The notes under the pieces were generated by a model. It was not told where the DNA came from, ran no database searches, and was given only the letters and a program-made list of their open reading frames with translations. The position numbers and the translations under genes are program-made. A stretch of 64,000 bases of DNA from Phoronis australis (taxonomy: Eukaryota; Animalia; Phoronida), in the NCBI GenBank assembly GCA_002633005.1, contig NMRA01000872.1, positions 38,475 to 102,474 of the forward strand. Reading direction: 5' to 3'. Numbering within the stretch: the first letter of the stretch is position 1; the number at the start of each line of letters is the position of its first letter. Positions 1-62,296 of the stretch are shown piece by piece.

Positions 1-9295
<9,295 letters not shown>

Positions 9296-13173: not shown

Positions 13174-14396
13174 GTAGGCGCCTCATTAGGGATCGTTGTC
13201 AATGTTTTGAAGGTTTGCAAAAACAAGCACATTGATGGCTACTGTGGGAATCCGCCATATCCAGAGAGGGTCAAATTTAAGGGCGAACGCAGTTTCGGCA
13301 CGACCCACCCAGCCGTCTAGGAGCTGACTATTAAGGTGCGTTTTCGTCTGCATATCTTGTTTTCTTTCGGTACATGCTGCTTTACAATAATCTGCATTCC
13401 GTCGTATTGACATGACATCATTTTGTCGTATTGGGAAACCAGGAGAGTGTTCGGCAGATGTTCGGCTAGTTTCATACCAGAAAAGTACATGTAAGATGTC
13501 GCCAGAGCAAAATCACTCTTATTTTCCCCCAGTATGATTGGGAGTCTACCTGCCTATCCTAGAAAAATGAAGACACTGAAGTTAGGCAAGATTAGTGTGC
13601 TGAATTGCACGGCTGTTTTCACTATTTCCGTTCGACTCAAATGCAGCTGATATCTTGCGGTTTCTGGTACAGAGCCTAGAATTTTAGGAGCAGAACAGTT
13701 GGGAAATAGAATATTCGCATGTTTATTAGTTACACGGTAGACTCAAAATAACAATGGTAATGTTGCGCGGATTTGAATCGGGCGNGTAGGCGCCTCATTA
13801 GGTATCGCAGTCAATGTTTTGAAGGTTTGCAAAAACAAGCACATTGATGGCTACTGTGGGAATCCGCCATATCCAGAGAGGGTCAAATTTAAGGGCAAAC
13901 GGAGTTTCGGCACGACCCACCCAGCCGTCTAGGAGCTGACTATTAAGGTGCGTTTTCGTCTGCATATCTTGTTTTCTTTCGGTACATGCTGCTTTACAAT
14001 AATCTGCATTCCGTCGTATTAACATGACAACATTTTGTCGTGTTGGGAAACCAGGAGAGTGTTCGGCAGATGTTCGGCTAGTTTCATACCAGAAAAGTAC
14101 ATGTAAGATGTTGCCAGAGCAAAATCACTCTTATTTTCCCCCAGTATGATTGGGAGTCTACCTGCCTATCCTAGAAAAATGAAGACACTGAAGTTAGGCA
14201 AGATTAGTGTGCTGAATTGCACGGCTGTTTTCACTATTTCCGTTCGACTCAAATGCAGCTGATATCTTGCGGTTTCTGGTACAGAGCCTAGAATTTTAGG
14301 AGCAGAACAGTTGGGAAATAGAATATTCGCATGTTTATTAGTTACACGGTAGACTCAAAATAACAATGGTAATGTTGCGCGGATTTGAATCGGGCG
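13174..14396. repeat. ~611-bp direct tandem duplication across an N (probable assembly/haplotype overlap)
   Basis: 13174-13784 is near-identical to 13786-14396, and the two are separated only by the n at 13785. Confidence 0.9.
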
Positions 14397-15984
14397 GGTC
14401 GTCTACATGATGCAAAAGCACTCTGCATTTGCCCCAGTATTTGGATAGAATGGTCATATGCGTCTAATTAAAAAGACGGTCTTGAAATGCTCTGACCACA
14501 ATACATGGGCGGCCCACCATAGGGGGCTGGGGGGCTATAGCCCCACTTTTTTTCGGTGGTACGCCGCAAATAGCTGGTTGTCCACAGGGGTGCTGAGAGG
14601 GATTTAGCCCCACTCTTTTGAGTACTGCACCACCGTGTAATATACATACATTGTACGTGTATGGCTGAAGCAAAAGATTCTTAAGTTTAAAACACTGACA
14701 ATAGCTCTCTGTAAGCGTTTTGTGGAGTGAAGGTACCTATAGTTGCCTATATCTACAACGGCTTAACTGACTAAAACGGTGACGCTGATCGATAGAGATA
14801 ATGATAACCAGAAATTTATTAGAAGCTTGCCCGAAATGAAGTCGGGACACTGGTAGGCCTCCGAATACATTCTTTAATGACAAGTTAGGAAGCATTTATC
14901 CAGATGGCGAATTGATTTTTTGTCATAACACAAATGCACCATTGGCAAGAGAAAAAAACAGCGCCATCTTGTGTTGACCTGTCAGCTACAGCACGCAGGA
15001 ATTCCTCTGAGATTTGTAAGACCTACACTGTAAATATTGATATGCTTGTGTAGATGCAGGACGTCTCCCAAGTGTTTGCATTTAGGGTAAAACCTTAGAT
15101 TGGGCATGGTACTGTGATGCTTCAAGGCGGGTCGAATGGAAACCCGCATGTGGATGTAGGCCTAGGCTATTGGTCAAGGGCGATCAAGGGACACGGTACC
15201 CGCCGCTATCTTGGACCACTGGCTGAGTCTGTTGGTCATGCATTAGGCCTACGCGGTAATCATGTTTTCAACACGTTTATAAAAACTCTGATTTTTATTT
15301 ATTTCAAGCAGCGTATTGGAAGAGAGCAAAACATATTCACGTGTATTCATTAGAATCTAGCAAAATTCACAAATTCCGAAAATCGACAGAAAAAATTATT
15401 GACTGTAAAAAACGAGTCTATAATAATATAAGTAAAACAACCACCGACAAACTTTTAAAGTAAGATCTTACTATACTAATAACTTGGTCATAAAAGTTTT
15501 ACTTTCAGGTGACTGTCATTAATGCCACAGCCAGATTTAAGGGGGAAGGGGGCAGCAAAATCACGAAGAAAAATGAGTTTGTTAATTAACTCCGATAATT
15601 AACATTATACAGCCGAAGTGCACTGTAAGATTTGACAATGTGTGGAGTTTTAATAAGTGTGTGCCTGTGTGTGTGTTTCTGGGGAGCTCAGACTCGACAT
15701 CACTTGTCTAATCGAAGTCTCAGTGAATAATTAAGAAACTCATAATTCTCTCTATGTCAAACATTAAACATTAAGACGGTTTGCGAAGCAACGCGTGGTT
15801 GTTGCCGACACGATAATGAATTTGGTATTTTCGGCAACCTAAGACTGCTTCTTCAACACTTTTGCTACAAACTGGTTGCAGAAAATATAAAACATGCAAT
15901 AAACGTTACAGGAATGAACAGGTTTGCATGCGAACGGTTTGGACCATAAACAATTATGTCTCTTACTATTTGGGCTTAGTTGAA

Positions 15985-16954: not shown

Positions 16955-19900
16955 CTAAGCGAATTGTGTTCCGTTATATGCGTCATTGTATTGCCTGGGC
17001 GGCATGCACTTGGGCTGTGTTGACGTTCCATAGCGCTCGATGGATACTTTTTGGAAGTTATCTTTTGGCTCAACAAATACGGTATCTGAGGACGATGCAC
17101 TTGGGTCTTCGTCGAAGTAGTTGAAAGGATACAGAAAGAAATTTAGAGTCATGTATGGCGTTTGCGTCGACGGAGCGTCCTCTGAATGGGGAATATGGTG
17201 CGTAGCAAGCGATATCCAAGCCACGAGGTCCTCATCCACAATGTCTTCATTGTCTAAGATGAAATCTTCAAAGTTCACCACGGGGTTCCAAGGGTCGTTC
17301 TGCGTGTAAACAGAACTACTATCCCTCTCATGATCCTTGTGCTTCGTGACGGCGAGTTGATACTTTGTCCAGGCCGCCCCCTGCACACCAGGTGTGTCGT
17401 CGGGAAGGACAAACTTACCCATACCCACTGGCTTCAGACGGTAGGCACGCTTAGCTCCGTAACTGTTTACATTGTCTTTGCTGTAAAAGATGCAATACCT
17501 CGGTTTATCAAAATCATATTTGTAAGCAGCGTCTTTCTCTTTCGTTTTCAGAGATCTTTCCATCTTCATTTGTGTCTTCATTCGTCCGGCAAACCATGGG
17601 TTCGGTATTTTCTCCACCCCTATGTCAATGGTCTCGTAACGGTTAGAGCGACCCAAGATGTCAATGTCTGCCTTGAAGTGGAAGTTATGGATGTGCATGT
17701 TTCCTAACGCGGTAGTGAACAATCTGTGACCGTAAGGATCCTCTTCCGGTGTGTAAAATGTCGTTTCTGGATATCCAGTTGAGGCGGCTTTCACTTCCAC
17801 GGCACCGTTTAAATGGAAAATGTAGTCGAAGACGTAATCGTAGTTCCATACGGTGGCAGCCTGCCTCACCACAAGTTGGTAATCCGGCAGGCCTGCGTAA
17901 GATCTATACCCACCGTTGTAATCCGTTGAAAAGTGCCTTCTCAGAGGCATGTGGTTGTTAAGCTCGAAGACGCAAACAGACCTCCGGTTACGTTTTGGTG
18001 TGTGCGTGTTTACGAAGTAATCCATGTCTAAGTAAACTGCAGTTTCTGGACAGTCAACACCCTCCATCAGCTCGGCGGAGAGCTCACCTAGATTCCATGA
18101 CACATCGTAGTACATAGCGATTGTCTCAAAGACGTCGTAGCCCGCATAGATAACGAACGCTTCTTGGAAACTCAACTCGTAAGCGATGCGCTCACCTCGG
18201 AATCTCACGTCAAATAGTTGCAATCCTGAAGAAAACCGGGAACGAATATCGAAACTCCACCCCATATAGTCTATATGGCGGCCTGAGACTTTGAATCTCC
18301 TACCTTCAGGCTCATACATCCGGGGACCCATCTGGGGTTTTTCGGGCATGCTATGGGCAGATCGCTTTTTATAGGAATAGTACTTCGTGTCTTTGTCAAT
18401 AGGAATAGTCAGTTTCTTAGCCGATCCGTCGTTATACGCTGTCAACAATCCGTCTACACTCTCATACTTGACGTTGTTGTAATAGATGCTATCTACCTTC
18501 CAGTCTCCTTGCTTAGTTGACTTGTGATTTATTGTCATCATGAAACTAACTGGTCGAATATAGTACCCTTCAGATCGCACAAAGGCGATGTACAACGAAG
18601 TTCGTTGCCCACTTTCTATCAGGCGAGGAGCGAAGTCATAAAAATCAAGACAGTCGCTGGTTGCTGTGCAGTTATGGTGGCCGGCGCCAAAACTTTCTTT
18701 CAAAACCTGGGAAAAGAATCAAAATATTATATTTATAATTTTATACTGATCATTTGCTACATCCTGAACACACTCAAGCCAGAGGAATTTTGGAATAGAT
18801 AAAGAGCGTATTATAACAAGTTCTAAGCCTGCAGTTCAAATCATGAATTTGGAACTCGACTCGAAAATCAGGCGAATGCATGTCAAGTTTGGTGTAAACT
18901 TACAAATTTCCAAACGAATCGTACATCGCGATCAGTTAAATTTCAAGTCTCAGTGTTAGTCGCGTCTGTGTCCTGGAATTTGACCATGGGCCTGTTTAGA
19001 AAATAATGTTTTATTCTCGTCTCAGGCGATTTTGAATTGTCAAATCAACGTCATCGTGTTTAACCTTTGCTAGAATTGTGGTTAGAGAAAAGAAAGCTCC
19101 TGGAATTCACCTGACTGCCATGCTACTTCGGTAAAACTAACCCCCCTTACAAGTAAAATTCACGGACTTACATGTAGTTCAAACAATAACGAGACGAAGT
19201 AACTGACAGAGTTATTCAAGTGCCACCAGTGCCTCTCGTACTCCATCAATCACTTCCCCATATATTAAAAGGATGTAAAGCCATGTTTTGATGATTTCAG
19301 CCAATCATCGTTATGTCATCTGCTAAATGCATCACTGGTGTTAATCTTCCAACTTAATGGAAGAAATCAACTCAAAACTCGATCTCTCTTTGTCACAGAT
19401 TGGACAATATGGTCCTCGGTGGGTAGTCTTTTGCCGTGTAGGCGTAGGTCACGCTTGCCCATTCATTCGACTTTAATTGGAGTTTTCAAATTTTCCTCCC
19501 AGTGTCCTAGGGTTGTTGGTGGTTGGAGAGTATGTTTTGTTTCAGAGAACTTGACATGAAAGTCGTTTTTCGTATGTGTTAATAGGAATTCCCTTTTCAC
19601 TAATTAACTAACGAACACTCACTCAGTGGTCCACAAAGTCGTTCACTTATTAATTAGCTCGCTCGCTCTCTCCCTGGTCACCTTGCCTCTCGGTTCTATC
19701 ACTAGCTTCATTGCCCATCACTTGTTCATTTTTCACTCATTAATCCCCTCATTAACTACCTTAGTTAGCCACTCACTCACCAAAACTCACTCACGCAGTC
19801 ACTCACTTACTCACTTATGATCGCTCACTCATGATCATTCACCCACTGATAATCACTTACGTATGACCATTCACTCACTCATCGTAACGCCCTCACTCAC

Positions 19901-20636
19901 CCAGTTAATCTTTCAGTAACTCACTGATCCTCATTTATTGGCCATTCATTCGGTATGTTGCGGCCATTCATACAAGAAAGCAAAGCACGAGACGTTACTT
20001 CACACATTGTTCTGACTGTTAACAAACCTTGTACAATTTCTCTGAAATTTCTTTGATCATCATATTCAGGGAAGACACTTCTGCTGCGTCCATGAACTTC
20101 GATTCATAAGGAAGAGGGTCTCTCCTGTAGGAAGGGTTCTTGTATAATGTGTGCGTGTTTGGATTAGGCAAAGGGCCAACGATGTACTCCTCAAGACGAG
20201 GCGGAGAAAGATCACCCCGCACGACGATAACCAACGCCTCTCTTCTCGGCTTTGGACCATTGGAGTCGATGTAATTTAACACTTCCGACTTTTTTGGAAG
20301 ATGAAGGTCAATAGACGAGATGTAACCAGATGAAAGGTTTCTCGTTTGCTTGACAACATCAAATGGTAGCAGATTCAGCGCCTGGTTTATGTAGTCACGA
20401 ACTCTCACGAGCTCGTCGACGGTTAGATCATCAAAGGTGCTGGGGTTTTCAAGGTCACGAGGGATGGTCGGAATGTCGTGGCTGCAAGATGGACCTCCTT
20501 GCACGATTGGCTCTGCTGCTGAACTTGATTTCCCTTGGTGCGAAACAACGCCAAGGGCAATCGCCAACGCGACGGCAGTGATAACGGCAAATATGGCCAC
20601 TAGACGCCATATGACGTTTGCTCGTTCAGATGGCAT
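16955..20636 (-). CDS. Copper-containing amine oxidase (AOC1/AOC3-like), 786 aa, N-terminal signal anchor
   Basis: Coding exons 20636-20028 and 18706-16955 join in phase 0 (KLYK|VLKESF). Contains the TPQ motif TVWNYDY, copper ligands HIH and HHIPHSED, catalytic-base region YYDVSWNLG, and IAYELSFQE. Hydrophobic segment at residues ~8-31. A splice acceptor (ttttcag) 13 nt upstream of the ATG implies a non-coding first exon. Confidence 0.95.
19600..19930. repeat. Degenerate (CACT)n/(CATT)n simple repeat in the amine oxidase intron
   Basis: Recurrent cactcact/cattcact units. Confidence 0.7.
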
Positions 20637-21121
20637 GTTGTGAGAGTTTCTGAAAATTTAATATGAAAAATAGGTAATTGACAAGAAAAGGCGGTAGTCT
20701 CACTTTTTAACTTAAATTTTACTTGAATCCAATTCGTTTCACAATGCAACATTAAGGGAGTCACTGGACTGTCCTTGGTGGCAAGGGCGTGATTGAAATC
20801 TTACAGCAGTTAAATGAATAGAAGTCTAGACTTGGAAGGCAAAATCCTGCATGTGGCATATGTATCCCGTTGTTCCAGCTTGCGATCCCGAGATTTCACA
20901 TGATAGTCGGTACTGACTGTCAATTTCTGGTAGTCTGCTTGTCAACTGAGATTTGAACAAATGCTGTAGTTGACAGGTGTGCGATACGAATATTATGTAT
21001 GAAGTAAATTACTTATATTTTGCTTATTGTATTATCATACTCCATCAGGAGCTGATGAAAGGCTTTTAATGCTAATAAAGCAACTCTACACCGTTCCCAT
21101 TGCCCTAGTGTTAAAAATATA

Positions 21122-23207
21122 TTTTTTTTCGGTTAAGTATTTTTATTTTCTCTAGCATGGGTATTTACAATTTACACGACACAATAAAACAATACAGTAT
21201 ACAAGTACATTAGTTGCAACAAATTGTCATCAAGTATCACAATTTGGTATACAGAACAGAAATACAGATATGTAAGAAAAAAAAAATCAAGCCATTCTCA
21301 CCCTTAACATACACGCCACACGCAACCGCCCCCCCCCCAACCTACTCTTAGTAGGATGTTGTCAGGCAAAAGTTATGGTTAACCAGTTTCTCCAGGTTGC
21401 ATGGTATTCATCTAAATTACCATTATTTAATAAAATCCTTCTTTGAATATAAAATTCTCTTTCTAATATCTTAAGGAACTGACAGAAACTGGGGATTATT
21501 TTTTTACACCTGGATAGGTAAATAAAATGTTTTAATTGCAAAAGTATCCAATTTAAAACTTTATTTTCATTACTTATGGGCATCCCAAAAAACATTGTTT
21601 TTTTGTCAATAACCATATTTATACCTTTTACCAACAACACCCAAATGCGTAATTCTCCTATCAATGTTTTTACATTATTGCATTCGAAAAAGATGTGATC
21701 CACTGTTTCACTTTGTGAATGACAGAAAGTACATACATCAGAGTCCACCAGGTTAATTTTTCTAAGAAAAGAGTTGGTTACAAGTATTCTATGTAATAGT
21801 TTAAACTGCAGTGTACATAACTTGAAATCATAGGTAGTTTTAAAAGACATTGAATATAATTTTTTCCAGTCATCACTTCGAAAGTTATAACCTTCCTTTT
21901 GAAATTTTTTTTGGGCAATAGGCAAAATGTTGTTGTGGCAGACACTTTCATATATCATTTTACATATTGATGTGCAGTTTAAAAAATTACGGATATTAAA
22001 AGGTATTATTGGTCCATATATCTTAATTAACTGCATTTGTAATGGTGTTCTCCTCAGAAACGACCTAACAGACTCAATCAGAGAACAATATTCCAAAAAG
22101 TTTGTAGATATGTTCGAGATCTTTTTGAATTCAGTAAATGAGTAAAATCTATTATTTTCATCAAGTAGGTCATTAATAAAAAGAACACCACCACTAGCAT
22201 ACTTGCTAAAGAAGATAGATTTTCTGTCTATTAGTATTTCATCGTTATGCCATAAACTTGTTGAGAGTAAATCGTTCGCATCTTTATGGGGCTGTTTACT
22301 AATGAAAAAAGACCAGTTACTTAGAACTTCGTTCCAAAAAGGATTGATTACATCAGTATGGTATTTAATAAAAACATTTCCAAAATTTATAATATTTGAC
22401 TTTGCAATCCCTGTTTCAAGTTCAAACAATTTCACCCATTTTGATTCAGAATTAAGTAATCTCTTTATCCATGAAATTTTTATAGCCTTGTTAAAAAGAA
22501 TAATATTTAACATTTTAACTCCCCCTTCCTCATAAGTTTTGATTAACACATCTCTCTTCACTCTCTCAACTTTGTTATTCCAAATAAACTTAAAAATGCT
22601 TGCATTCAATTCATTCATAATAATGTCTGATGGAGTAGGCAGAGTTGTCATAATGTGAATAAGTTTTGGCACCATCAAGGTCTTCACCACCGTAACTTTC
22701 CCGAAAAAGGAGATTTTTCTTCTAGACCAAATTTTGATAAGATTATTGATTTCATCAATCCTCTCATTGTAGTTGATGTCAATCATTTTTTCTAGGTTAA
22801 CACTAAACTTGATACCTAGCATCTTAAATTCCGTCATGCCCCATTCCAACTTCCATCTTGCGTGATGGAAAACATCCTTGCAAAATTTTTTACTGCCCAA
22901 CCAAATAACATTAGTTTTGGAAAAATTTACTCTCAAACCAGACATATCTGCAAATCTACTCAAAACTTCCATAATAGCTTCCAAACTACGCCTTGAACCA
23001 TCTAAGAAAAACGTTGTGTCATCAGCATACTGAGTAAGTATAAATTCCTCATTTCCTATTTGAATGCCTTTAATTTCCCTATCTTGTTTCGTCATCATAG
23101 CTAATATTTCAGCACATAAAATAAAAACATACAGAGAAAGAGGATCACCTTGTCTACAGCCCCTGTGCAGAGTAAAACTTCTGGTCAGGAAACCGTTTTG
23201 AACAATG
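21122..23207 (-). mobile_element. 5'-truncated non-LTR retrotransposon (L1/Tx1 clade) ORF2 with 3' UTR and poly(A)
   Basis: Open frame from ~23207 to 21362: IVQNGFLTRSFTLHRGCRQGDPLS...TQYADDTTFFL (reverse transcriptase) and a C-terminal zinc-binding motif CTFCHSQSETVDHIFFEC. The 3' end reads AATAAAAATACTTAACCG(A)8 on the minus strand. No endonuclease domain and no clear TSD. Confidence 0.92.
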
Positions 23208-26200
23208 TATTATTTGTCCTAGGTACATGTTTTCAGTATCGTATTTGTGGTGCTTGATTATGCGGATATATTTCGAGGTACGTGTAAGCTTTCGAAAGAA
23301 TTGCAATACGTCTAGATTGTTGGGCACAATACATGTACTCCTAGTTGTTAGACAATGGTAGTACCCACAGCCAGGTACCCGAAGCCCGGAATCGCAAGTA
23401 GATCCCTGTGATCTTCTGTTTCAAAATGTTTGGAGCCATTAGACCGCAAAATATTCCAAAATATATGTGGAATTTGTTCGGAAGAAGTTTTTCGATGACA
23501 ACAGTTCTTAACTTAATTCATCTCTACATATAAACATTCCACCCTAAGCCCTATATTCCATAGTAGGAACTAACACATGAACTAATGAATGCAAACAAAT
23601 CCCGCGGAAGCGTGGCGCAACCTACGCAGCGCGAGATCGAAGTTGTCATTCCAAGCCTAGAGCTCTAGCGTTAATGCAACAACTTGTTCCAATAAACAAG
23701 CTAGATAATTTAACCCACTGTATGCTATAGTGCCCTAGTATCAGTTACCCAGGCATCTCGGCGCTAAGCACTATGTCCTATACTAATATAGATAAGGACA
23801 ACTCAGGCCAAAAAGTCATAGTTGAAGCGGGTCGACTCATTTTTAGGCCTTTACTCACTGACTAAATTAAAAAACGCTCGCTTGTATCCATTTTTGTCCG
23901 CACGTTAGAAAGGGAACACAAAATTTGAAACGTCATGATTTAGCTGTGGTGGGTGAAAATTTACCCGCATCATTTTTGCTTGTTTCAGGTGGGTTTTCTT
24001 TTTTGAAAAGGTGAGCAACAAAAAAGACTGCATCACCGATTCCATTTAAACGAAAAATGAGACATCAAATTCAACTTTGCCTTTTTGTCCTGATAAAATA
24101 GTCACAGTCATGACATCTGCGTTGAAGTTGCCGTTGAGAGGTTTTCAAAACTTAAAAGTTTTAGCGACGGAAAGACGATACCTTTTCAGTGCAGACTGAA
24201 TTTTAGACTTAAATCTCTGGAAAATACAATAAACGTAGAGGCCCATGACCATACCTCGACAATTTCAAATTTCAGATTGAAAATCACGGTAACCGGTGAG
24301 TTTACTGATCGATAAACTGTGCGCAAATTCCATACACTAGTTTAAATGCGTCGTTGAATCTGTGGAAACCGCTTCACAAGACTGAAGTACATAAAGAAAT
24401 TGTTCTCACGATAATTGCCCTGTCCCTTGTTTCGGATTTTCACCTCAGTGCTGCAGCAACTGGTTATCACCGACTGGTCATTCGGCATATACAAAAGCGA
24501 ACTAAATGAAAAACAACGCAGCCACGACCTTGTGTCACCTCAATCGTTTATCTATCTCAGCAAATCTTTACCTGAAAACTTGATATCACTTAGGCGATAC
24601 CGTTGAACGCGTCTTATCTGCCATGGCACAGTTTGGAAGTAAATTATGTTTACCTTAGATTGGTTCCGTAGTCGGGAAGATCTCGCCAATGAACCCAATG
24701 TGATCACGTGGTTTGCTTGTAGTAATGGGAATATCTCGCAAGATTTTGCTTGTTGTGTTTTCTCGAGGTTCTCGCGTCTACGAAGCTTAAGTATGCAACT
24801 TCGTGAAAAACTAAGTAACCCCATTGACGTTATTCGTTGATTTAGTGTTTTTATAAAGCTCTCTGCTCCACGTTGGCTTTCTGAGAATTTGTAGGGCAGG
24901 CGTACCGAAGGGACCGTCTGTAAACGAGAGGACCACGTCTCAGTGAAAGATGGACCCTTAATATGAAAGGTTTTCTGTCCCAATGCTCTAATCGCAAAAA
25001 AAGGCTATACAGCTGAGAACAGAAAAGTGACCCTCTTTCCATGCATCATCGGGTAACCCTCCTTCCGTCACTGGGCTATCTTCCTGGACATAAAGAATTT
25101 TACAATTTCACAAAAAAAAAACAGGAAAATAGGGGAAATCGATGCCACCATTAGTCCCCCTTCCCGGCCCTCCGCGAGCGGCTCTTTAAATGAAAGGATA
25201 TCAATACAACAGATTTTTACGAAGAATGCATAACCAGGAGTACATTCGGATAACTAAACTGCAAAACCTGGGCTAACCCGCTAAATGCTCGGACAATGGC
25301 CTCGAACTGGTAGCTGACAAAGGCTCTCTTAATTACCTCGTCTGAGCGCTTAGCTGTGTCTTGTCACAAATGACCTTCGCCCCCGGCATTAGGGCAAAGG
25401 GAAACTTTTCTAAACGATAAATACATGTAAGGACACCTTTATCTGTGTCAAACTCGGAGCACGCTATCTGCGCTTGCACATGACAAAGTCCAGTCTCATT
25501 GAGAAATCATGTGTTGACAAAGAACAGCTAATGCAGTGAACAAGTTAATTGTCAATTTTATGAAGAAGCTTCTCGACAGTGAGAAACTTTGTAAAGAATT
25601 TTCAAGCTTGATTGATGTAGTTTACACGAATGGTAAATGTATTTGCGCATGCTCAAGAAGAAGAAATGTTTTGCCTCAACGAATTATACAAATTACCTGC
25701 ACATAAATGTAAATGCTCAGTTAGGCTAAAGCCGGCTCGGCTTCAGTGTCCTTATAATTTTATCTAAGACTTGCCTGTCTGATACATGTACGTATTTGTC
25801 TTAACTGGAGATAACGTGTGTGTTATCGTTATCTCCCCAATAAGTCCTATCCAGGGTCCTTGTTTGCGACACCTACATGTACATGTATAGGTACAGTACA
25901 AGTGTAGTACGCAGACTTATGCTAATGTACGTTATAGGGCTTATAGGCCGCGATTTGAGTTAGCATTCAGTTTTCGACAGCTCGTATTAATTGGTCTCTG
26001 AAACATTTTGATGAGTTTTCACTGACTCTGGCCTATCAGGGCCGTAACCCGTCAACAGTTTTGGGGAGCGCGCTTGGAGAAACTTTGACATGAAACACAG
26101 GGTTCATTAGATGTCATAGGACAAACTGAATAAACCAGAAGAACACACTGTATGTCAATTAACAGTTAGGTATTCGTGTGCCTCATGCCTCCCGCGTAGA

Positions 26201-27302: not shown

Positions 27303-30300
27303 ATGTCTGCGCAAGATCCAAGAGTACGAAACATGAAAATTAAAACGGGTGTCGTCAAACGGTGAGTCGCCCGTGTTTGTTTGTTCAGAACACCGGCAAT
27401 GCCTTGCCGACGGAAATTCTGAGCAAGCTAATGGGCAATGTATATGAGTGTATGGGGATAGTATAGTTCCAAACATTTCAAAATAAAAAATGGGACATCT
27501 AAAATAGGAAGGCAATACATCGGCGCTTTCAAGACTTCGGACTTAATCTTAATAGGAACAGTAGATCTAATCTTACTACCGAACCACTATTCGGTCTTCT
27601 GCAGAAACCCCCTGTTGTAGATGTGCTTCCGGCGAATCATATGAGCCTCTGTTAGGTACCCGCTAACCGGCAATTGCCTATTAGCTGAATGGTTAGCACG
27701 CTTAAAGGGTTTTATGGGGGTCGCTGTTTCGATCCCCGGGTCGGGTAATCTCGGCTAGAATTACTACAAATGGCGTAGTCGGCAAACGTATTATCTACCG
27801 ATGAAGCACTGCCAACTGTACCCGTGGACCTTGGGACTTTTCTTCATGGAAGGTTCCAGAGTCAAGGACCTGTATGAGAGACTACCTTGTGTTCACCTGT
27901 GTTGTGGTGGTAAAGGTACTAAGGGAGGTTGATGACCTGTATACGAGACATCCTGGTGTTCACCTTCCTGGTCACATGCCTGTTCTGTAGGAAATGGGGG
28001 AATGTTGTAGATGTGCTTCCGGTGATGAGCCTCTGTTAGCTGCTCGCTTACGGGCAATTGCCTATTATCTGAACGGTTAGCACGCTTGCCGGTTTTATGG
28101 GGGTCGCTGGTTCGATCCCCGGGTCGGGTAATCTCGGCTATTACTACACCCCCTATACACAAGCTCAAATCGATCTGCTGAACTTAGAACAAGCGCTGAC
28201 TTGTAGGACCAATGAGTTGGGCCGTGAGCTCGGCTGGCTTTTGCCTTTTTTTGCAATTAAGGCAGTGGCAAGTTTGAAAGCCAAAAACAGAAAAAAACGT
28301 CATGACCAAATCAAGTCAAAGACCTACCAACCTTACAAACATATCGTTCCCGAGAGAGTATAATCGCCGACAAAACTCTAATTTTACCAGTAAATACAGT
28401 TTGAAAAAAAACAAACTTTGCTAAAAAGATTTCAATGTCATATCGAGTATATTGTAAACAAATATACAATATAAAGAAACAATAAAAATATGAACTGATG
28501 TACATTCACATTAACGTACTCTCTCCCAAAGTTTTTTAGAACTGGACCATTGATAGCTGCTCGTGGACGTGGTACTATTTCTGGGACAACGATGGCGTGC
28601 TCACAATGCGCTATTCAAGACCACCGGTGTTCTCACGCCACTTTCTGTTTTTAGTCACCAGACTTCAGCCTCAGCAGACTCCCATGTAGGTTTTGTCTTA
28701 TGGAGAAGTCAACCAGTGACGTAATAATATTATGAACTATGTAAAAAGTGCACAGATACCTCTGGATTGCCACAGGTCATGGGACAAGGGGGTTTTGGGT
28801 CGAGGGGTGTCATGGGTTGAGGGGTGTGGGGGTCAAGGGGGTTTCGGAACAGTCTGTTCTGTTGGACTGACTGTTAGCATGCGGCGTGGAGCGACATATT
28901 CTAATAATGCCAAGCACGGGTTAGGGCAATTTTGCAACAGACTTTTCACTGTTTGAACCACATGCTCAGCTTCATCGTTGCCTTGAGACTGAGAGTCCGT
29001 TGGGCTTCTTGTTACATGCTTGAATTCATACTCTTTCGCAAACTGTTTTAACTCGAACGAGGCGTATTGGGGCTATTTTCTTATATGAGTTTTTGTCGGA
29101 TTCCTTGGCAATATAGATTTCACGTGTGTGATTATGTCGGCTGATGTCAAAGGTGACAGTTTAAAGACTGAGAAGTAATCGACTATAATACTAGATCACC
29201 GTCGCTAGCTGGCCAGTTTAGGTTCGTGGTAGACCTTTAAAACTTAAAGTATTAGCTTAAATGTCTAAAGTATCTGAAAACTTTTTAAATCATTTTCAAA
29301 AATGATTAGCCAAATACTTTCTCCCTATCCCCAGCTTACAGTGAAGGTTCGCCAGCCATATGGGCCTGATGTTGAAAAAAATTCAGCAGGGGTTCCTCCC
29401 CTATTCCCGAGTTATGGCAAAGGTACGCCGGCCACTTGGGCATTTAAATGATGTTGGCCTTAAAAGAAATTGGGTATCCCTCTATCCCCGGGTTACGACG
29501 AGGGGTATGCCAGCCATATCGACATTTCATTGATATTGACCAAAAAATATGAGCAAGGTTTCTCTCCCATCGCTGTTACGGTGGGGTTACTCAGGGAACT
29601 GGCTATTTTTACTAGCCATGTGTCGTCCGGCCTGATGAGGGCACTTTCGGGTGATGTTAGGTAATTGAGCTGATACTCCGAGATCCCTGTTGTGTTTTCC
29701 TGCTGCTATTTACTGTTGTGATCATGGCTGGTTGACAGGAATGTCAAAATGCGTACCGTTTTGTGCTCAACACTTTATATTTTTAAAGAATTTATTCTCG
29801 AGCATTTACGTGTACTTAATGGCCATATAATCCCTCTATACAGTTTTGTGGTGTTATCCTTGCAGGCTGACTAAAGAGAAACTAATGTATGAAAAGGAAG
29901 CTGTTCAACAGCAGGAACGGATTGACAAGCTGAAGGCTGACAACGGTGATGAGTACGTGGTGAAAAAGCAGGTAGGTCAAAGGTCAATACTGGTGAAAGA
30001 TGAACGACGATCGTGAACTGGGGAGGAGACACTGAGCACTAAGCTAATGAATGAGTGACCTGTTTGGTTCAGAGCTGAACATTAATCAAGGCTTGGAATT
30101 TTCCGCGGAAACGCGGATTTCCGCTTTTTTCAAATGTAGTGTCTGCGTATTTTATTGTATTTCTGCGTAAAAAAATCAGATTTGATATAAAATTTCCGCG
30201 GCTAATTCCTTTCTTACCGCTGCGTAGCCGACGACTTTCACCTCCAAAAGCGGAAGTTGCTCTTTATGCTTCGGAGGAACGTAAATTGTCAACATCGCCG

Positions 30301-32934
30301 GGGCATCTGGGATAGCGTGGTGGATTTTTCAATGGCGTCTCGTTTCATTGTAAAAAAGCGGTGGCAAATACTACGACTCTGCAGCCAAAAATGTGTGGAG
30401 GTGGGAGTGGACGGGCGAGCTGAAAAGACGCACGGCTGTGGAGGTGGTACCGTTTTTCTTTTTTTAGTCCTCCCGATTTTTTGTCGGCAAAAACGTCCAC
30501 ATCGGCTATGTCGAGGGCCGGGAGGCGGGCATGTTTTGAGCCATAAAAGTTTCCGCGTTTTTCGTCATTGGTCATTCCAAGCCCTGATTAATTCACTTGG
30601 CCAGCAAGAGCAAGCTACATTTTTGCGGAGGTCGAATCTGTAAATTTCCAATATTGCTATACTCGAAAAAGAAATCATCTGTTATACAGTTGGGGGAGCT
30701 TGTTAGATTTTTTTCACAGTAGACTCACCCTATTTTGGGCACAATATGGCATACAAATGACACTTGATTTTCTCAGGTTGTTCATAAACGAGAAGAACCG
30801 CCAAGCCAATGCTTTCCATGTTCAAACTCGGTAAGGACAGGTACCACCAGACGATTGTTTTTTCGGCAAACGCAACACTGTTCAAAACCATCTAAAAGGA
30901 ATCGGCATTTTTTCACTCAGGGTGCAAATCTAGAATTTTTTATGTTATGCAGTCATATTGACAGAATTCCTTCATCTCTGACAGATATTTGTATGATGAT
31001 GTTGTTTTAACACCGGTACTACGACATTTACGCATTTTAAAGTATGAAAAAAATGTTAATTATGGCCAGAGTAATCCTTAATATAGCTGAATATAGCCAA
31101 AAATCCATCATTGATCCATTCTTGTTGTTTTATTTACCGATTTATATTCTTCATTTCTTGAAACAATAGTATCCTTGGGAGGATCTGGATCGCCTTATTT
31201 AGTTTCAGATATATATTTTCTACGTTATTTTCCATTATTAAAAGATTTTTGATACTGCACATTGGGAATCGTGAAGCTATCTTTGGCCCAGAATAAATAG
31301 AATAGACCAATTCCTGGATTTGAATTGATCATTTAAGCAATGATGTATTCTCCATAGCCCCTCTATTCTCCTTAGCCCCCAACTTTGAATTGTACATGGT
31401 TTGAAAAAGCTCGTATCTAGGTGCATTTACTGAGACAATGGAGACAAATAAACTCTCCTACACAAGAAAAAAATACATTTTTTATTTATGGCTGGGTTTT
31501 GAGGCAAGTTTAGGTAAAATTACTTTTTCAGTTTAAACTCATTATTAATAGAACATGAATGTTCTTTGGTCATTCAGAAGTGTTGGTATTAACAAGTAAA
31601 TGAATTCTATTGCATTTGCTCAAGTATTCATCCACTTGTAAACAGGTATCTGCATATTTTGTATTCTCTGTAGCCCCATTTATGACCTCTGTGCTATGTG
31701 AGACTTAGGCATTCAATGTTTATTGATGATGAAATGTGTTTTCCTGTATTTCTTTGATGGTAGTTAATGGAATTAGTCTTTCCTTTTGACAGTGATGTGA
31801 CTCTGATGATAGTCATGTGCTGAGTATGTCTAAGGATTAAGTACAATCTATGTTTTATTTGTACATTCACACCTTGTGAAGCATACACAGGTGGGAACCT
31901 ATTTTTTATATTGACGTTCAGTGATTAAGTACATGAGTTACCAATATTAAACTTTCTTGTTCCTGAGCCAGACTTAAGTCTTTTTTCCAACATGGATGTG
32001 ACAATACCAATGATGTATTCTCCGTAGCCCACATTTTTCTTTGTTATTTCAACAGGCCAAATCTCAAAAACTAAATGAGTAATATACTCCCAAATTGTAG
32101 AGACTGATGTCAATTGATAACATTTCTGTAGGAGCTCTGAAATCACTTCAATTATGACTAAGGAACATTTTGAGAGCAATTTCATTATGGAAAGTGGACT
32201 AACTCCAAATGTATTTCTGTGGTGGAAGAGGGGTTAGTAGCAGCTGTTGACAGCGAGTTATCATTTCTGTGGTTGTTTATTTACTTGATGAGCTCAGTAC
32301 TTGCTTTTGTTGGTGTTACTATTATGGTGGCTCACTGGGTGAATTGTAATGCACAGTTTTACCGTTGTGATTTTTTTCAGATTGAAGTACTCAATGAAAC
32401 ACTGCAAATGATTCCAGACTCCCTGCGGCGGTTGAAGCAAGCCATTGCTGAACTAGACTCTCTCATGGTGAGTGCACAGATCTGTCAACTTTATGTCTCC
32501 CCTGACCTCGACCATGACCCATGTCTGCTCTTATGACTTGCTTGAACAAAACTTTGATGACTGGGAAGTTGACTGGATATGCCTTCTGTCAAAAATACCA
32601 TTGTCTTTGAACCGGTTCTCAACATTGTTATTTCTCATTGTTGGACTTAAGAAGACCTAACTGTTTGTTGCTTGAGACTAGACTGGATGTGTTGGACTGA
32701 CATCATTTCATGCCTCCAAAGCAGTATTTCTGTCCAAATAAAAGTTTGTTCTGTGGACTGACACTGCGGATAACTTTGAGACTTTTGCACCGTGTTGCAA
32801 ATTTAATATGTTTGTGTTTTTATTTACAGTCTGAGAGCCAGACAGACCTCAGTGAACTTGAGGAGTTCACCACTGCCAAACAGCAATTGGACGACGCCCA
32901 GAAGGTAGTCGACGCCCATGCTGAAGCCTCCTAG
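27303..32934 (+). CDS. TBCA: Tubulin-specific chaperone A, 4 exons, 118 aa
   Basis: Exons 27303-27361, 29866-29971, 32381-32467 and 32830-32934 give MSAQDPRVRNMKIKTGVVKRLTKEKLMYEKEAVQQQERIDKLKADNGDEYVVKKQIEVLNETLQMIPDSLRRLKQAIAELDSLMSESQTDLSELEEFTTAKQQLDDAQKVVDAHAEAS*, matching the TBCA signature KIKTGVVKRLxKEKxMYEKE. Candidate AATAAA at 35105. Confidence 0.96.
27613..28148 (+). mobile_element. Terminal-repeat retrotransposon in miniature (TRIM) with tRNA-like Pol III promoter in its LTRs (Helenus-like)
   Basis: LTR1 27613-27768 and LTR2 28003-28148 (TGTTGTAG...TACTACA). PBS TGGCGTAGTCGGCA at 27771-27784 is complementary to the 3' end of tRNA-Ser. PPT AGGAAATGGGGGAA at 27989-28002. CCCC(C) flanks both ends. 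A-box TAGCTGAATGG at 27682 and B-box GGTTCGATCCC at 28109. Confidence 0.9.
28888..29189 (-). pseudogene. Degenerate Ty3/Gypsy integrase core fragment
   Basis: Minus-strand translation IIVDYFS...TSADIITHVKSI...*PQYASFELKQFAKEYEFKHVTRSP...QGNDEAEHVVQTVKSLLQNCPNPCLALLEY resembles the Gypsy rve core (VDYxS...SDNGPQF...TSSPxxPQSNGxAERxVQTVK). It has an in-frame stop and deletions. Confidence 0.8.
30087..30586. mobile_element. 500-bp non-autonomous DNA transposon (hAT-like CAGGG termini)
   Basis: TIR caaggcttggaat / attccaagccctg, flanked on both sides by ATTAAT. Subterminal ttccgcg repeats and a GC-richer interior. Confidence 0.75.
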
Positions 32935-35900
32935 TCAAGTTGCTTTAATCTAAGCAGAAATAACTGCTCTTCTATAATCCATGTGCTGAGTTGTATTAAA
33001 TTCCAGCTTGATTCAAGCTGAGCTTCTGAACTCAGCACACTGTAGTACATAATATGTGTTAAATTGATTTGATTTAATTTTTCACCCAATGGATGTCAAG
33101 CTGTCAGTTTATGCCCTGCCGTGTTAAAGTCTGATGCAGTGATATATTGGAAGTCCTAATGAAACTGAAGTATAAGTACAGTGTAGTGTGGACTGTCAAG
33201 GCTTTGTTTCATAAAAGTGAATGAAAGCCTAACTTCAATGGAATTTTGTTATTTTAGATGTATTGGGCTAATCAGATAGTCTTAGCAAAGTCTTGGTAAA
33301 ATAAGAAAACGCGAGTTCAATCATACAAATGTAAGCTCCTCAAATGATAAGTGAAGCTGCCTTTTTGTGACATGTTGCGTCACCATGAGATTCCAGCACA
33401 AACAACGAAAGGTTGTATTGAATAGGGGTCTGAATAGAGCACCATTGCGTGTGGATGTTATTCGCAGCTGTTTGAATTAAGATTAAGATTCTTGTGGTGA
33501 CATAGACGAAAGCAAACCAATACTCCTAACAGTTCGTTACATTTGGCAACTAATGGTTGACTCAGAAGGATGCTCTTAACATACTGTAGGAACCAAATTT
33601 ACCTGTGTCACCGTTGCAGATAGACTGTGAGACTTCAGACAGAAATTTGCTCTTACTCACCCACTTGACAATTGCTGAAAAAGCCGAGTAATTGAAAGCA
33701 CGTCACACTCTAGAAATAATTGATAGACATTGAGCTGGTAAGGAGCAGTTATGTGTGTATTTTCAGCGACTTGGCACTTATGCTTTAGTGTGAAACATCT
33801 TTGTGTAGCCTAAGACCAATTTTCTGACTTAGGCCACTTTTTTGAAACAGACCTCTGAGCTTGGACAATCACTGAAGTCGCTTCAGTCTCCAAAACTTGT
33901 CACACTCAGGACTGTGGTGAAATTATCATATTCAGGAGACGGCAAATGTGTAATTGTAATGGCACATGCTGTCATGAAATGGGAACGTTAGGAAAAGCGA
34001 CCTCTTTGTGCAGACTGACAAGTTATGCGATGGCAAGCTAAGCAAAGTAATGTGTGTAAAATTTCAAGTGCAAACGTCCTTTAATAGAAAAAGTACAAAC
34101 GTTTACAAACAGATATCGCTGTACACATTTGTTGGTTTATGCTAACAAATACGGCTCCCATAGAAGTATCGGGCTATACAGCCCATGGAATAAAGCGGAG
34201 AAAAGCCTACTGTAACATGCTCTGCGGGGCTTTAAATGTATCCCAGCCTTGGTACGTTGGCCCATTCATGAATATATTCCAATGCACTGCATTGAGCATG
34301 GTTATGGGTAAGCTGGTCTTTGGAAATTCGTGATACCCCTTGAGTGACATCCTATTACGCATTTTCGATGGCCAGCTCTAACAAATCTTGTAAGGTAGGT
34401 TAAAGGACCTGTGTTAGGAGTAAAGCCTGTTCTGAGAGTACTCATCGTCTGCCGTCTGAGGATGTGGGGATAAATTAGTTGCCAGTGTTGATCGTTACTA
34501 GTTTGTGATGCACAATAGGGAGCTGTGAGCATTACATGGCATAGAATTTTAGTTAAACTCTTGTACATGAGGTTCAAAGCCGGGGGCTAAATTTTGTACT
34601 CGAAAACTGAACAATTAGATTGCAATCTTTAAGTAAACTTACAAATTTGCACTCGAATCATTCAACACAGTTGGTTGCATGAGTTTCAAGCTCCTGAGTA
34701 AGTTTTTCTGATTTCCAAGATTAGACCTTGGGCCTTGGTCTGTGATACATAAAGATTTATAATAATCTAATTATACATCTATTTTTCCATGTCCGCAATT
34801 TGAATTCATGACTATTACACTTAGTCTTTGTTTAGTAAAGATTAAGCATAATGAGGTGTGTTTTTCAATCACAACGTGGTCGTTGATGTTCACATACACG
34901 TAAGCTAATACTAAGGCTTATTGATGTTTCAGTATTTTGTGTGAGAGACTGCTGAAACCGTTAGACTTACTGAGGCTAAGCTTTCATAGGGAAGACAGTT
35001 TGAAATTCTGTTGGCATCAACTATAGGTGTCGCTGTATCTATGCTTTCGTTCTCTTTGCGTCTAATTTATACTGTGATGTGTTTTACACAATATGTACAT
35101 CTTGAATAAATCAAAATAGAGTAGATGACCTGTGTTTTGCTATGCAAGATTTTGCTGTCTTTTAACAATTGCTTTGTTTTCGTTTTGTATGTACGCAAAT
35201 GTTTTGGTAAATCCCTGCCCCTGATTTCTGTTGTGGCTTCATGTTCTGGTTCATGTGCACTTACATGTGCAAGTGTCGCCCCCTGTTGTTGGCCATTTAG
35301 CTTGGGCAGACCATCTATTATATTTTGTTACAAGCTTTGTATTAAGCATGTTGTCTGGAATTACTGGCTCTTTGGATTGCAGCAACCAAACTTAAATAAT
35401 GCAACTGGGATTCAATCCAAGCGTACCCCATGCATTAGCAGACATTTAAAGAAAAGCCACATTTCAATTTAGTCCGGTCTGTGCTACTTTCTGATCAGGA
35501 ATTTTTGTCTGTAATCAGAAAATTTAACGCTTGAGCACAAAATTGCTGGGTAATAACCTGTGTTCACTCGACACGAAAGTTAGCTTAAAATCTGTTTATG
35601 GGTACCGTAGGTCTCGTGAATGGGGGATCGTCACACTCGACATTGTTACATGCTCGCTGTGGGATGTGTGCAATTTTGAAGTACCCTGTATACTTTATGG
35701 CGGTCATAGGCAGACGGAGAGCTAAAAGGGTTTAACTCAGGGTTAAGAAAATGGTTTCAAAGTCTTCCCTGATCAAGTTCAAGGTGGATTTGGTACTTGA
35801 AAAATGACACTACTGGTTGGTTTAGCACAGCGTGACGTTTTATGAACCAAACCGGAGTGCCCGTTTTCTGGAAACCCCGGCAGGGTGCACCAGTCTCAAA

Positions 35901-36443
35901 TAGCCACGCAACTATGTCCCCTAAATCTACAGCGTATTTGTTTCGTTTTTTACTCACAGATGTTATATTTTTCTATCGTTTTAGTTTAATTATTGGTCCC
36001 ACTAAATGACATTTTCTAATAATATAGCTAAAACTGAGTCCTAATTGAGTTATAATAATTAGGGACTTAGTCCTTAAATCGGGGGCATAGCATGGAAAGA
36101 TCCCTACATATTTTCAGCTCAGAGAGACTTGTTTTATATATCTGAGTTTTCAGTGATGTTGATGTTTTAACGCAGAGTTCACTCTCGATTCGTACATTTA
36201 TCAAAGCCTTAAACCGACTTAGTCATGAGACTGCATAAGAAAGGTCGAACAGCATAACAAAGGACAAAAATATTTTCACAAGCCTAGAAATACACAGTAG
36301 ATTTATGGAACTCAGGTGAGTCCCAAATTGGAAATGTTTCATGCAACGGCGAGCACTGAAACTCATTTCACATGTTTTTAAGGGACAATTTGAGACCAGT
36401 TAAATAACAATAAGTAGTCGACTGTCGAAAGCTTATTCCTTGN

Positions 36444-38815
36444 CCTCAGCGAACTTGAGGAGTTCACCACTGCCAAACAGCAATTGGACGATGCCCAGAA
36501 GGTAGTCGACGCCCATGCTGAAGCCTCCTAGTCAAGTTGCTTTAATCTAAGCAGAAATAACTGCTCTTGTATAATCCATGTGCTGAGTTATATTAATTCC
36601 AGCTTGATTCAAGCTGAGCTTCTGAACTCAGCACACTGTTGTACATAATATGTGTTAAATTGATTTGATTTAATTTTTCACCCAATGGATGTCAAGCTGT
36701 CAGTTTATGCCGTGCCGTGTTAAAATCTGATGCAGTGATATATTGGAAATCCTACTGGAACTGAAGTAGAAGTACTGTATAGTGTGAACTGTCAAGTCTC
36801 TATTTCTTAAAAGTGACTTAAAGCCTAACATCAACGGAATGTTGTTATTTTAGATGTATTGGGCTAACCAGATAGTCCTAGCAAAGTCTTGGTAAAATAA
36901 GAAAACGCGAGTTCAATCATACAAATGTAAGCTCGTCAAATGATAAGTGAAGGTGCGTTTTCGTGCCATGTTGCGTCACCATGAGATTCCAGCACAAACA
37001 ACGAAAGGTTGTATTGAATAGGGGTCTGAATCATTCAACACAGTTGGTTGAGTTTCAAGCTCCTGAGTAAGTTTTTCTGATTTCCAAGATTAGACCTTGA
37101 GCCTTGGTCTGTGATACATAAAGATTTATAATAATCTAATTATATATCTATTTTTCCATGTCCGCAATTTGAATTCATGACTATTACACTTAGCCTTTGT
37201 TTAGTAAAGATTAAGCATAATGAGGTGTGTTTTTCAATCACAACGTGGTCGTTGATGTTCACATACACGTAAGCTAATACTAAGGCTTATTGATGTTTCA
37301 GTATTTTGTGGGAGAAACTGCTGAAACCGTTAGACTTACTGAGGCTAAGCTTTCATAGGGAAGACAGTTTGAAATTCTGTTGGCATCAACTATAGGTGTC
37401 GCTGTATCTATGCTTTCGTTCTCTTTGCCTCTAATTTATACTGTGATGTGTTTTACACAATATGTTCATCTTGAATAAATCAAAATAGAGTAGATGACCT
37501 GTGTTTTGCTATGCAAGATTTTGCTGTCTTTTAACATTTGCTTTGTTTTCGTTTTGTATGTAAGCAAATGTTTTGGTAAATCCCTGCCCCTGATTTCTGT
37601 TGTGGCTTCATGTTCTGGTTCATGTGCACTTACATGTGCAAGTGTCGCCCCCTGTTGTTGACCATTTAGCTTGGGCAGACCATCTATTATATTTTGATAC
37701 AAGCTTTGTATTAAGTACGTTGTCTGGAATTACTGGCTCTTTGGATTGCAGCAACCAAACTTAAATAATGCAACTGGGATTCAATCCAAGCGTACCCCAT
37801 GCATTAGCAGACATTTCAAGAAAAGCGACATTTCAATTTAGTCCCGTATGTGCGACTTTCTGATTGTTCAGGAATTTTTGTCTGTAATCAGAAAATTTAA
37901 CGCTTGAGCACAAAATTGCTGGGTAATAATCTGTGTTCACTCGACACGAAATTTAGCTTAAAATCTGTTTATGGGTACCGTAGGTCTCGTGAATGGGGGA
38001 TCGTCACACTCTGCATTGTTACATGCTCGCTGTGGGATGTGTGCAATTTTGAAGTACCCTGTATACTTTAGAGCGGTCACAGGCAGACGGAGAGCTAAAA
38101 GGGTTTAACTCAGGGTTAAGAAAATGGTTTCAAAGTCTTCCCTGATCAAGTTCAAGGTGGATTTTGTACTTGAAAAATGACACTACTGGTTGGTTTAGCA
38201 CAGCGTGACGTTTTATGAACCAAACCGGAGTGCCCGTTTTCTGGAAACCCCGGCAGGGTGCACCAGTCTCAAATAGCCACGCAACTATGTCCCCTAAATC
38301 TACAGCGTATTTGTTTCGTTTTTTACTCACAGATGTTATATTTTTCTATCGTTTTAGTTTAATTATTGGTCCCACTAAATGACATTTTCTAATAATATAG
38401 CTAAAACTGAGTCCTAATTGAGTTATAATAATTAGGGACTTAGTCCTTAAATCGGGGGCATAGCATGGAAAGATCCCTACATATTTTCAGCTCAGAGAGA
38501 CTTGTTTTATATATCTGAGTTTTCAGTGATGTTGATGTTTTAACGCAGAGTTCACTCTCGATTCGTACATTTATCAAAGCCTTAAACCGACTTAGTCATG
38601 AGACTGCATAAGAAAGGTCGAACAGCATAACAAAGGACAAAAATATTTTCACAAGCCTAGAAATACACAGTAGATTTATGGAACTCAGGTGAGTCCCAAA
38701 TTGGAAATGTTTCATGCAACGGCGAGCACTGAAACTCATTTCACATGTTTTTAAGGGACAATTTGAGACCAGTTAAATAACAATAAGTAGTCGACTGTCG
38801 AAAGCTTATTCCTTG
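36444..38815 (+). repeat. Duplicate of 32847-36442 (TBCA last exon, 3' UTR and downstream) after an N; probable alternate haplotype
   Basis: Starts mid-exon right after the n at 36443 and ends in the same sequence (gcttattccttg) as the copy before the N. It has scattered SNPs and lacks 33436-34658. Confidence 0.9.
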
Positions 38816-39296
38816 TCGTCAAGTGGGGCGTGGATTTTTATAGCTGCTTATTCATATATCCCTGGCTAACTAAAACGCGGCACTATTCCTTCAATTTCGT
38901 GAACCAAAAAAATGATGTTGGGTCTTGCAAGTCAATGATCGTGCGCCGTACTTGTTCTCTTCCCTTAAGATAGTGTCACACGCCCACAGCGTGAGAGTTA
39001 AGCCTCCTGACATAAGTTTCCTGGCACATACGCTTATCGGGGCTTAAAACAAACAAAGAGCTAATGGGAGTTACAGAAATTAATGAACTGAGCAGGTCCT
39101 TTGAACCAATTGACAACAACGAATACCTCGAATATAGGAGAAGAAACGAATCTCCAATCGTCTTTGTCTTGTTTACTGTCCGACGAGTTAAGTTGATTCC
39201 TTCCAAGAATGTACTTTCACACCACGATAAATCTGCTTTATTTTGAGAGGACCCCCGGGACTGTAACTTCTTCATTTCACAAACTCTCGGACTGTG

Positions 39297-54224: not shown

Positions 54225-54310
54225 TGGTCAGATGTAACACGCCCATATTTTGAGAACCAGTCAAATGCCCGTTATTCAGTGGAGAAAACTGGTTTCCAAA
54301 ACGTGGGCAT
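54225..54310. mobile_element. ~105-bp palindromic MITE family, copy 2
   Basis: ggtcagatgtaacacgcccatattttgagaaccagtcaaatgcccgttattcagtggagaaaactggtttccaaaacgtgggcat. Confidence 0.65.
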
Positions 54311-54510
54311 CCCAAAAGAGATTGACTTCTTGACTACCAAATATGTTCCCATTTCATTTGTACAGGGATCTTGTCATACAATGCAAAGGTTCAATAGACA
54401 TAGCACAAGGCTATGTTATTTTTCATCAGGCTTTGTTAGTGATGGGATAAACTGTAGAAAATCTCATCAGGGCAAACAAAATGCAGTCCACAATACATCA
54501 GAAATGCAAT

Positions 54511-62241: not shown

Positions 62242-62296
62242 CGTTTTACAAGGAATATGCTAGCGCAACAAACAACAACAACTACATGGTCCAAAA

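Follow-up and report, generated by a model that had tools for sequence, protein, structure and literature searches.

The 64,000-nt stretch of Phoronis australis DNA that we analyzed (hereafter, the window) contains a 536-bp element that is almost certainly a Helenus-type TRIM, i.e., a gene-less, non-coding LTR retrotransposon. Our preferred reading, to which we assign a probability of roughly three in four, is that the element belongs to a dispersed Helenus-type family that is likely transcribed by Pol III from the A and B boxes in its LTRs, and likely copied in trans by Gypsy elements. Our confidence in the use of Pol III is lower than that in the TRIM identity. The full element in the window is an ageing copy and is probably dead or weak, based on the 8% divergence of its LTRs and the presence of one broken box in each.

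The anatomy of the element was re-derived from the window, and the coordinates are compiled in Table 1. As had been claimed from the sequence alone, two TG..CA direct repeats enclose 234 non-coding bp, a 14-nt PBS lies 2 nt behind LTR1 after an AA spacer, and a PPT abuts LTR2. The CCCC(C) target duplication that had also been proposed was found as CCCCC on both sides of the element; in such a homopolymer, duplications of 4 and 5 bp are indistinguishable. The longest ATG-started ORF in the entire element is only 43 codons. Alignment of the LTRs (BLAST E 9e-47) showed 134 of 146 aligned bases to be identical and 12 to be mismatched, and it contained 3 gaps. The insertion is not a fresh one, as this corresponds to a corrected divergence of ~8.7%. 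Directly behind the element we observed a second, unrelated multi-copy repeat (28153-28340; summed contig depth ~1,300-1,800), in which no tRNA boxes were found; 41 contigs part from the window before 28178. This repeat, or its edge, may have been the insertion site of the TRIM.

Table 1. Features of the element, of a solo LTR of the same family and of the host intron (window coordinates).
Feature	Coordinates	Strand	Remarks
Host intron 1, TBCA (tubulin-binding cofactor A) gene	27362-29865	+	Splice loose end in 3 RNA runs
Left TSD, CCCCC	27608-27612	.	4 or 5 bp, homopolymer
5' LTR (LTR1), 156 bp, TGTTGTA..TACA (TG..CA)	27613-27768	+	44 DNA contigs diverge exactly before 27613
LTR1 hairpin arms, 5' of palindrome	27651-27667	+	One arm broken; pairing base at 27656 restored in most reads
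LTR1 palindrome, 10 nt, GGCAATTGCC	27669-27678	+	Begins 13 nt before box A
LTR1 box A, TAGCTGAATGG	27682-27692	+	Intact
LTR1 T4 run between boxes	27710-27713	+	Possible weak Pol III terminator
LTR1 box B, GTTTCGATCCC	27726-27736	+	Decayed; begins 44 nt after box A; canonical in most reads
Interior, 234 bp, non-coding	27769-28002	+
PBS, 14 nt, TGGCGTAGTCGGCA	27771-27784	+	After AA spacer
Two internal direct repeats, 32 bp, 84%	27867-27898 and 27934-27965	+
PPT, AGGAAATGGGGGAA	27989-28002	+	Abuts LTR2
3' LTR (LTR2), 146 bp	28003-28148	+	53 DNA contigs diverge exactly behind 28148
LTR2 hairpin arms	28035-28051	+
LTR2 palindrome	28053-28062	+
LTR2 box A, TATCTGAACGG	28066-28076	+	Decayed
LTR2 T4 run	28093-28096	+
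LTR2 box B	28109-28119	+	Intact
Right TSD, CCCCC	28149-28153	.
Solo LTR, same family, older	61592-61743	+	Both boxes decayed; ATAT on both flanks (61588-61591, 61744-61747)

Contigs from a DNA run (X1) that is probably the assembly's own sample, and hence not independent of the assembly, diverge from the window exactly at the two ends of the element (Table 1), with a flank agreement of only 0.35-0.36. That dozens of contigs do so at both ends indicates a dispersed family rather than two adjacent SINEs. Summed contig depth, which is not a copy number, was 7.8 in the unique flank, 568-28,660 in LTR bins and 267-4,338 in interior bins. This shows that LTRs far outnumber interiors, as solo LTRs would give. 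Two independent tRNA-derived SINEs lying side by side, or a local duplication, might be suspected from the occurrence in the repeat of boxes A and B, as in the head of a SINE. However, the TG..CA ends, the correctly placed PBS and PPT and the one duplication around the pair speak against this, as do the absence of an A-rich tail, the position of the boxes in the middle of the repeat, and the multi-copy interior with identical family ends in dozens of contigs. The sequence-only reading had named inconsistent ends or boxes in other copies as the sign of such a pair; the other copies were found to have the same ends and interior, with canonical boxes in the majority. We consider there to be next to no chance that a SINE pair or a local duplication is the correct explanation. 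A tRNA-derived SINE was also rejected as the identity of the element, since a SINE of that kind is expected to have a tRNA head at its 5' end and a simple-repeat tail, and no LTR, PBS or PPT.

The length of the target duplication could be read at another copy, the solo LTR, whose flanks match over 4 bp (ATAT) and mismatch over 5. This is the single clean case of a 4-bp TSD. In the RNA runs, the dominant loose ends on the left and on the right have GAAG in common next to the element and differ in their fifth base; if both derive from one copy, a pairing that we infer, they represent a second 4-bp duplication. The solo LTR is probably intronic, with a FAM174-like exon (61840-62259; Pfam PF06679) from which it lies ~100 bp downstream on the minus strand. 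Reads and contigs were also observed to turn back where the LTR ends and resume either on the PBS side or at the beginning of the LTR (joints 28139/27760 and 28148/27613). These joints could simply represent the 5' LTR-PBS junctions in other copies, or may stem from tandem arrays, such as have been reported for Cassandra and LTR-11_DR.

Boxes A and B begin 43-44 nt apart in the element, and the spacing in tRNA genes is close to this. A search of the window with a box A..box B pattern, which was fitted after the site was seen and allowed one B-box mismatch, gave 1 match, at 27682, compared to a mean of 0.01 in 100 shuffles. The sequence-only reading placed both boxes in each LTR. This does not apply to the copy at 27613-28148, in which box B of LTR1 and box A of LTR2 are decayed, but it does apply to the majority of the family. 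In the three RNA runs, the box B base at 27727 was canonical in 53/59, 41/43 and 69/69 reads, and the box A base at 28068 in 136/145, 135/146 and 189/198 reads. The hairpin-arm positions 27656 and 28049 likewise had the canonical base in most reads, and the same majority was seen in the contigs of the one DNA run. The broken boxes and hairpin arms of this copy are private decays.

Upstream of box A, the hairpin described in the earlier reading (gttagc..gctaac) proved to be a composite, as one arm is broken in each LTR of the element; it is whole, with a 9-bp stem, only in the solo LTR. The palindrome described with it is perfect in both LTR1 and LTR2. Its presence alone is not significant, because there are 98 perfect 10-nt palindromes in the 64-kb window. 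The predicted energy of the palindrome is -16.4 kcal/mol as a self-duplex vs -2.6 kcal/mol as a hairpin. There was no sign of a cloverleaf: ARAGORN reported 0 tRNA genes in the sequence, and Rfam had neither a tRNA match nor a 5S match to E 10. The single Rfam row, snoR110 (E 9.3), was outside the element and was dismissed as chance. Functional tRNA genes were rejected as the identity of the tRNA-like parts, whose fold z-scores were -0.8 and -1.9.

Intron 1 of the TBCA gene contains the element in sense orientation, ~250 bp behind exon 1. RNA reads pass from the splice donor into the next exon, which was found at 29866 (Pfam PF02970, E 1e-9). From ~18-19% of each of three RNA runs, 920, 887 and 848 reads were placed on a 1,138-bp stretch. 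The libraries are stranded, as the reads of the TBCA exon run in one direction only, and in all three the element reads covered both strands. Between 72 and 78% of the element reads continue into unlike sequence, no site with many read starts or ends was observed over the element in the three runs, and the intron beside the 27613-28148 copy had almost no reads. These reads are from other copies carried in host transcripts. The pattern weighs little for or against a Pol III RNA, since library selection was not recorded.

The resemblance of the reads to passengers in host transcripts is one of several features that would fit a different history, in which the tRNA-like piece is the relic of a captured SINE within a TRIM that spreads, or spread, by Pol II read-through or from a Pol II promoter in the LTR, the boxes now being idle. 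A T4 run within the transcription unit, the lack of a cloverleaf, and the decay of both boxes in the solo LTR and of one box in each LTR at 27613-28148 are all in keeping with such a relic, and Kojima (PMC10886601) noted that the Helenus promoters are without experimental validation. However, the majority of family reads retain both boxes at tRNA spacing even though the tRNA fold is lost, which is what selection on the promoter only would predict. We regard an idle relic as unlikely, and Pol III transcription from boxes A and B as the likelier case.

In the element, the palindrome begins 12-13 nt ahead of box A, at the position where transcription from a type 2 Pol III promoter is expected to initiate. 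Under our proposed mechanism, TFIIIC and Pol III would start the RNA in the 5' LTR ~13 nt before box A, i.e., at the palindrome, and the RNA would extend across the PBS, interior and PPT. A weak T signal in the 3' LTR would end it, assisted by an RNA structure that can form only if the transcript includes the upstream LTR part. A Gypsy particle would then package the RNA, with a host tRNA priming at the PBS and the PPT priming the second strand; the integrase would leave a 4-bp duplication, and recombination between LTRs would produce solo LTRs.

Some published observations are consistent with parts of this scheme. Ty3 and Ty1 RNA dimers are held together by short 5' palindromes (PMC11381356, PMC6844567), and termination at four U in human cells is reinforced by a hairpin located ≤19 nt upstream (bioRxiv 10.1101/2020.09.11.294140). 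The hairpin of the element is upstream of the predicted start, and so only the 3' LTR would contribute it to the RNA; it could therefore make termination one-sided. The resulting R could be some dozen bases long, comparable to that of Cassandra, whose RNA is reported (as cited in PMC10886601) to have both its start and its end within the small-RNA portion, giving an R of 18 bp. Cassandra read-through transcripts are reported as well (PMC7215508).

The evidence for a one-sided terminator is mixed. In a fold test that had no shuffle control, pairing just before the T4 with vs without the upstream LTR part was 0.68 vs 0.31 in LTR1 and 0.88 vs 0.56 in LTR2, and did not rise in the solo LTR (0.66 vs 0.63). 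T4 runs also occur inside the predicted transcription unit, where they could cause premature Pol III termination: one is at 27710 in the 5' LTR, and another, which reads often lack, is at 27838 in the interior of this copy. Counting against such a terminator, most published families have only three T before box A, where this family has TAT, and box B is followed in many published LTRs by long T runs, at which Pol III should stop in the 5' LTR.

The T4 between the boxes is kept in all three LTRs of the window. This raises the question of whether the main product of the LTR is a short Pol III RNA ending at the T4, or a tRNA-like RNA useful to the host, with full-length RNA a rare product of read-through. 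Partial termination with read-through is described as common for human Pol III (PMC3141230). The z-scores given above, on the other hand, show no tRNA fold. A predominantly short or host-useful product seems quite improbable to us, and would be compatible with, rather than exclusive of, Pol III transcription followed by Gypsy mobilization.

The PBS, TGGCGTAGTCGGCA, is of a type that we take to be tRNA-Ser. Self-priming was rejected, since a canonical PBS is present. A scan with a pattern of LTR end plus PBS found 107 loci (7 viral, 100 metagenome), and a search of the viral contigs for the primer tRNA gene found 0. The PBS is extended by GGA in 30 of the 107; the other 77 mostly look like chance matches. 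Domains of gag (PNMA-like or CCHC) or pol were found downstream in 19 of the 22 GGA-extended loci that were tested, several of these loci being copies of one family and all being from organisms other than this host. The order RT-RH-INT was seen in two of them, L008 and L036. Another repeat, that of L002, was examined as a potential LTR and rejected. None of the 107 loci resembles the element beyond the PBS. Three metagenome contigs (L008, L036 and L039) hold several copies of a single LTR family whose pol domains begin shortly behind the PBS; no gag frame was detected in front of pol, and these are possibly internally deleted elements.

Judging by their domains, Gypsy elements that use this primer site exist. 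The earlier proposal that the element is mobilized by such elements is supported indirectly by the gag and pol domains at same-PBS loci, all of which are from other organisms. The PNMA-like-gag Gypsy (Ty3) loci (L008, L010, L020, L036, L074, L075 and others) have an LTR end of TACA and the same PBS within 1-4 nt; they differ from the element in that they are coding, have a longer PBS pairing, occur in other organisms and show no likeness to it outside the PBS. We suggest that Gypsy elements of this kind are a candidate helper class. Gypsy is the only group with which animal Helenus have PBSs in common (PMC10886601).

During our analysis of the window, we noted several features apart from the TRIM family. 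A copper amine oxidase gene (16955-18718 and 20019-20657, minus strand) has a very long exon (587 codons open), the best matches of which are only 46-49% identical (molluscs, amphioxus, Lingula). In a quick tree of 48 rows (the query and a hand-picked 47 of 120 listed matches), the query was on a long branch from an open node next to Lingula, outside the sampled bivalves, gastropods, amphioxus, vertebrates and corals. Just upstream of this gene is a 5'-truncated non-LTR retrotransposon frame (21362-23209, minus strand; 615 codons open) with the C-terminal part of RVT_1 and zf-RVT. Exons at 1199-5301 (plus strand) are presumably those of an alpha-amylase-like gene based on their motifs, with a weak Pfam match (E 0.03) in one exon. 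Near-identical tandem duplications at 32847-38821 and 13174-14399 (1.8 kb at 98%, 589 bp at 95%, 614 bp at 98%) are either recent duplications or assembly artefacts. Also observed were a 34-bp minisatellite of 30 copies (54510-55529), tandem units of 143/302 bp (63418-64000), and three copies of a short dispersed repeat (7004-7112, 54222-54310, 58303-58410), one with an inverted, MITE-like self-match.

The upstream features of the LTR are not confined to this element. By eye, we recognized a module consisting of a hairpin, a self-complementary 8-12-mer and then TT and box A in published Helenus LTRs. The palindrome-TT-box A part was counted in 54 of 76 published non-insect animal LTRs (33/51 in bivalves, 3/3 in nemerteans and 18/18 in vertebrates) and was absent from 3 Lingula LTRs and 1 ctenophore LTR; these counts were made by eye, were not blind, were lenient on G-U, treat related families that are not independent, and leave out 40 wasp families and the fungal families. 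Most of the 54, though not every one, have a clear hairpin. The letters of the palindrome vary, with centres of TTAA, GATC, GTAC, TCGA, CATG, CCGG, TGCA, ATAT and ACGT (AATT in this element), yet the sequences remain self-complementary, the departures being compatible with G-U pairing on the sense strand or limited to one unpaired base in the middle. Because the loop of a hairpin needs no self-complementary centre, duplex formation is the simpler interpretation.

The words "palindrom" and "hairpin" have 0 occurrences in the main text of Kojima 2024 (PMC10886601), and we found no description of the module in a literature search whose coverage was mostly outside subscription journals; two later papers do no more than name Helenus. 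The module may be new, and may mark a short R or dimerization end. We tentatively hypothesize that the hairpin-palindrome module defines one old lineage, or a recurring design, of Helenus in aquatic animals (bivalves, nemerteans, bony fish, coelacanth and this host), in which the palindrome would be the RNA start and a very short R that pairs genomes or genome ends, and the hairpin, by converting a weak T run, would provide a one-sided terminator at the 3' LTR. If true, this would explain how Pol III starts in one and stops in the other of two identical LTRs, and would argue against separate molluscan and fish origins. A shared module could also stem from a captured SINE head or from horizontal transfer. 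Kojima 2024 does not explain how two identical LTRs allow Pol III to produce an R-to-R genome, and the module provides a testable handle on this, as it predicts exact RNA ends and a dimerization site.

Helenus (TRIMp3) was defined by Kojima 2024 (PMC10886601) by a tRNA-like LTR sequence with box A (TRGCY..YGG) and box B (GGTTC), a cloverleaf not being required; animal families have 4-bp TSDs, and the zebrafish LTR-11_DR has thousands of copies (Table S3 of that study). Our data support the placement of the element in this group, which had been suggested from the sequence alone. Like Helenus, it is shorter than ~1 kb (536 bp) and non-coding, with two TG..CA LTRs, a PBS after the 5' LTR and a PPT before the 3' LTR, and it belongs to a dispersed multi-copy family with solo LTRs. 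Boxes A and B are both present in the LTRs of the family majority, each LTR here having one broken box, and the 4-bp TSD is seen at the solo LTR, the 27613-28148 copy being ambiguous.

Nearest in layout are the tRNA-Ser-primed mytilid families Helenus-2_MyGa, -2_MoPh and -2_LimFor, and also Helenus-2/-3_PiNo. The mytilid families have LTRs of 141-156 bp and interiors of 226-268 bp, compared to 146-156 and 234 bp here, and both they and the PiNo families have, by eye, a hairpin and palindrome ahead of box A. The element differs in having TAT rather than TT ahead of box A, no T-run after box B, and a T4 between the boxes. Five diagnostic motifs gave 0 matches in the Data S1 supplement of Kojima, in which line breaks can hide a match, and no animal family there looked alike by eye (parts 1 and 5-9; the fungal consensuses in parts 2-4 were motif-searched only). 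The PBS is absent from Fig. S2 of that study, where the Ser sites differ. Its sequence thus suggests that the element is a new Helenus family of a known TRIM kind, as judged against Data S1 only; the earlier suggestion of an uncatalogued family holds relative to that supplement, and the family may still be catalogued in Repbase or Dfam.

Two other groups of TRIMs have a Pol III promoter in the LTR, Cassandra of plants and Ajax of nemerteans. Their LTRs carry 5S boxes A/IE/C, in contrast to the tRNA boxes A/B of the element, and Ajax has 5-bp TSDs. Membership in either was rejected, as the boxes are tRNA-type and Rfam gave no 5S match. The biv-TRIM of bivalves is also a short non-coding LTR element of marine invertebrates, but, as described in PMC6934838, it is without a canonical PBS and has hairpins in its interior. 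Overall, the element contributes to Helenus one family and a PBS absent from those listed for animal families, and it probably extends the host groups by one.
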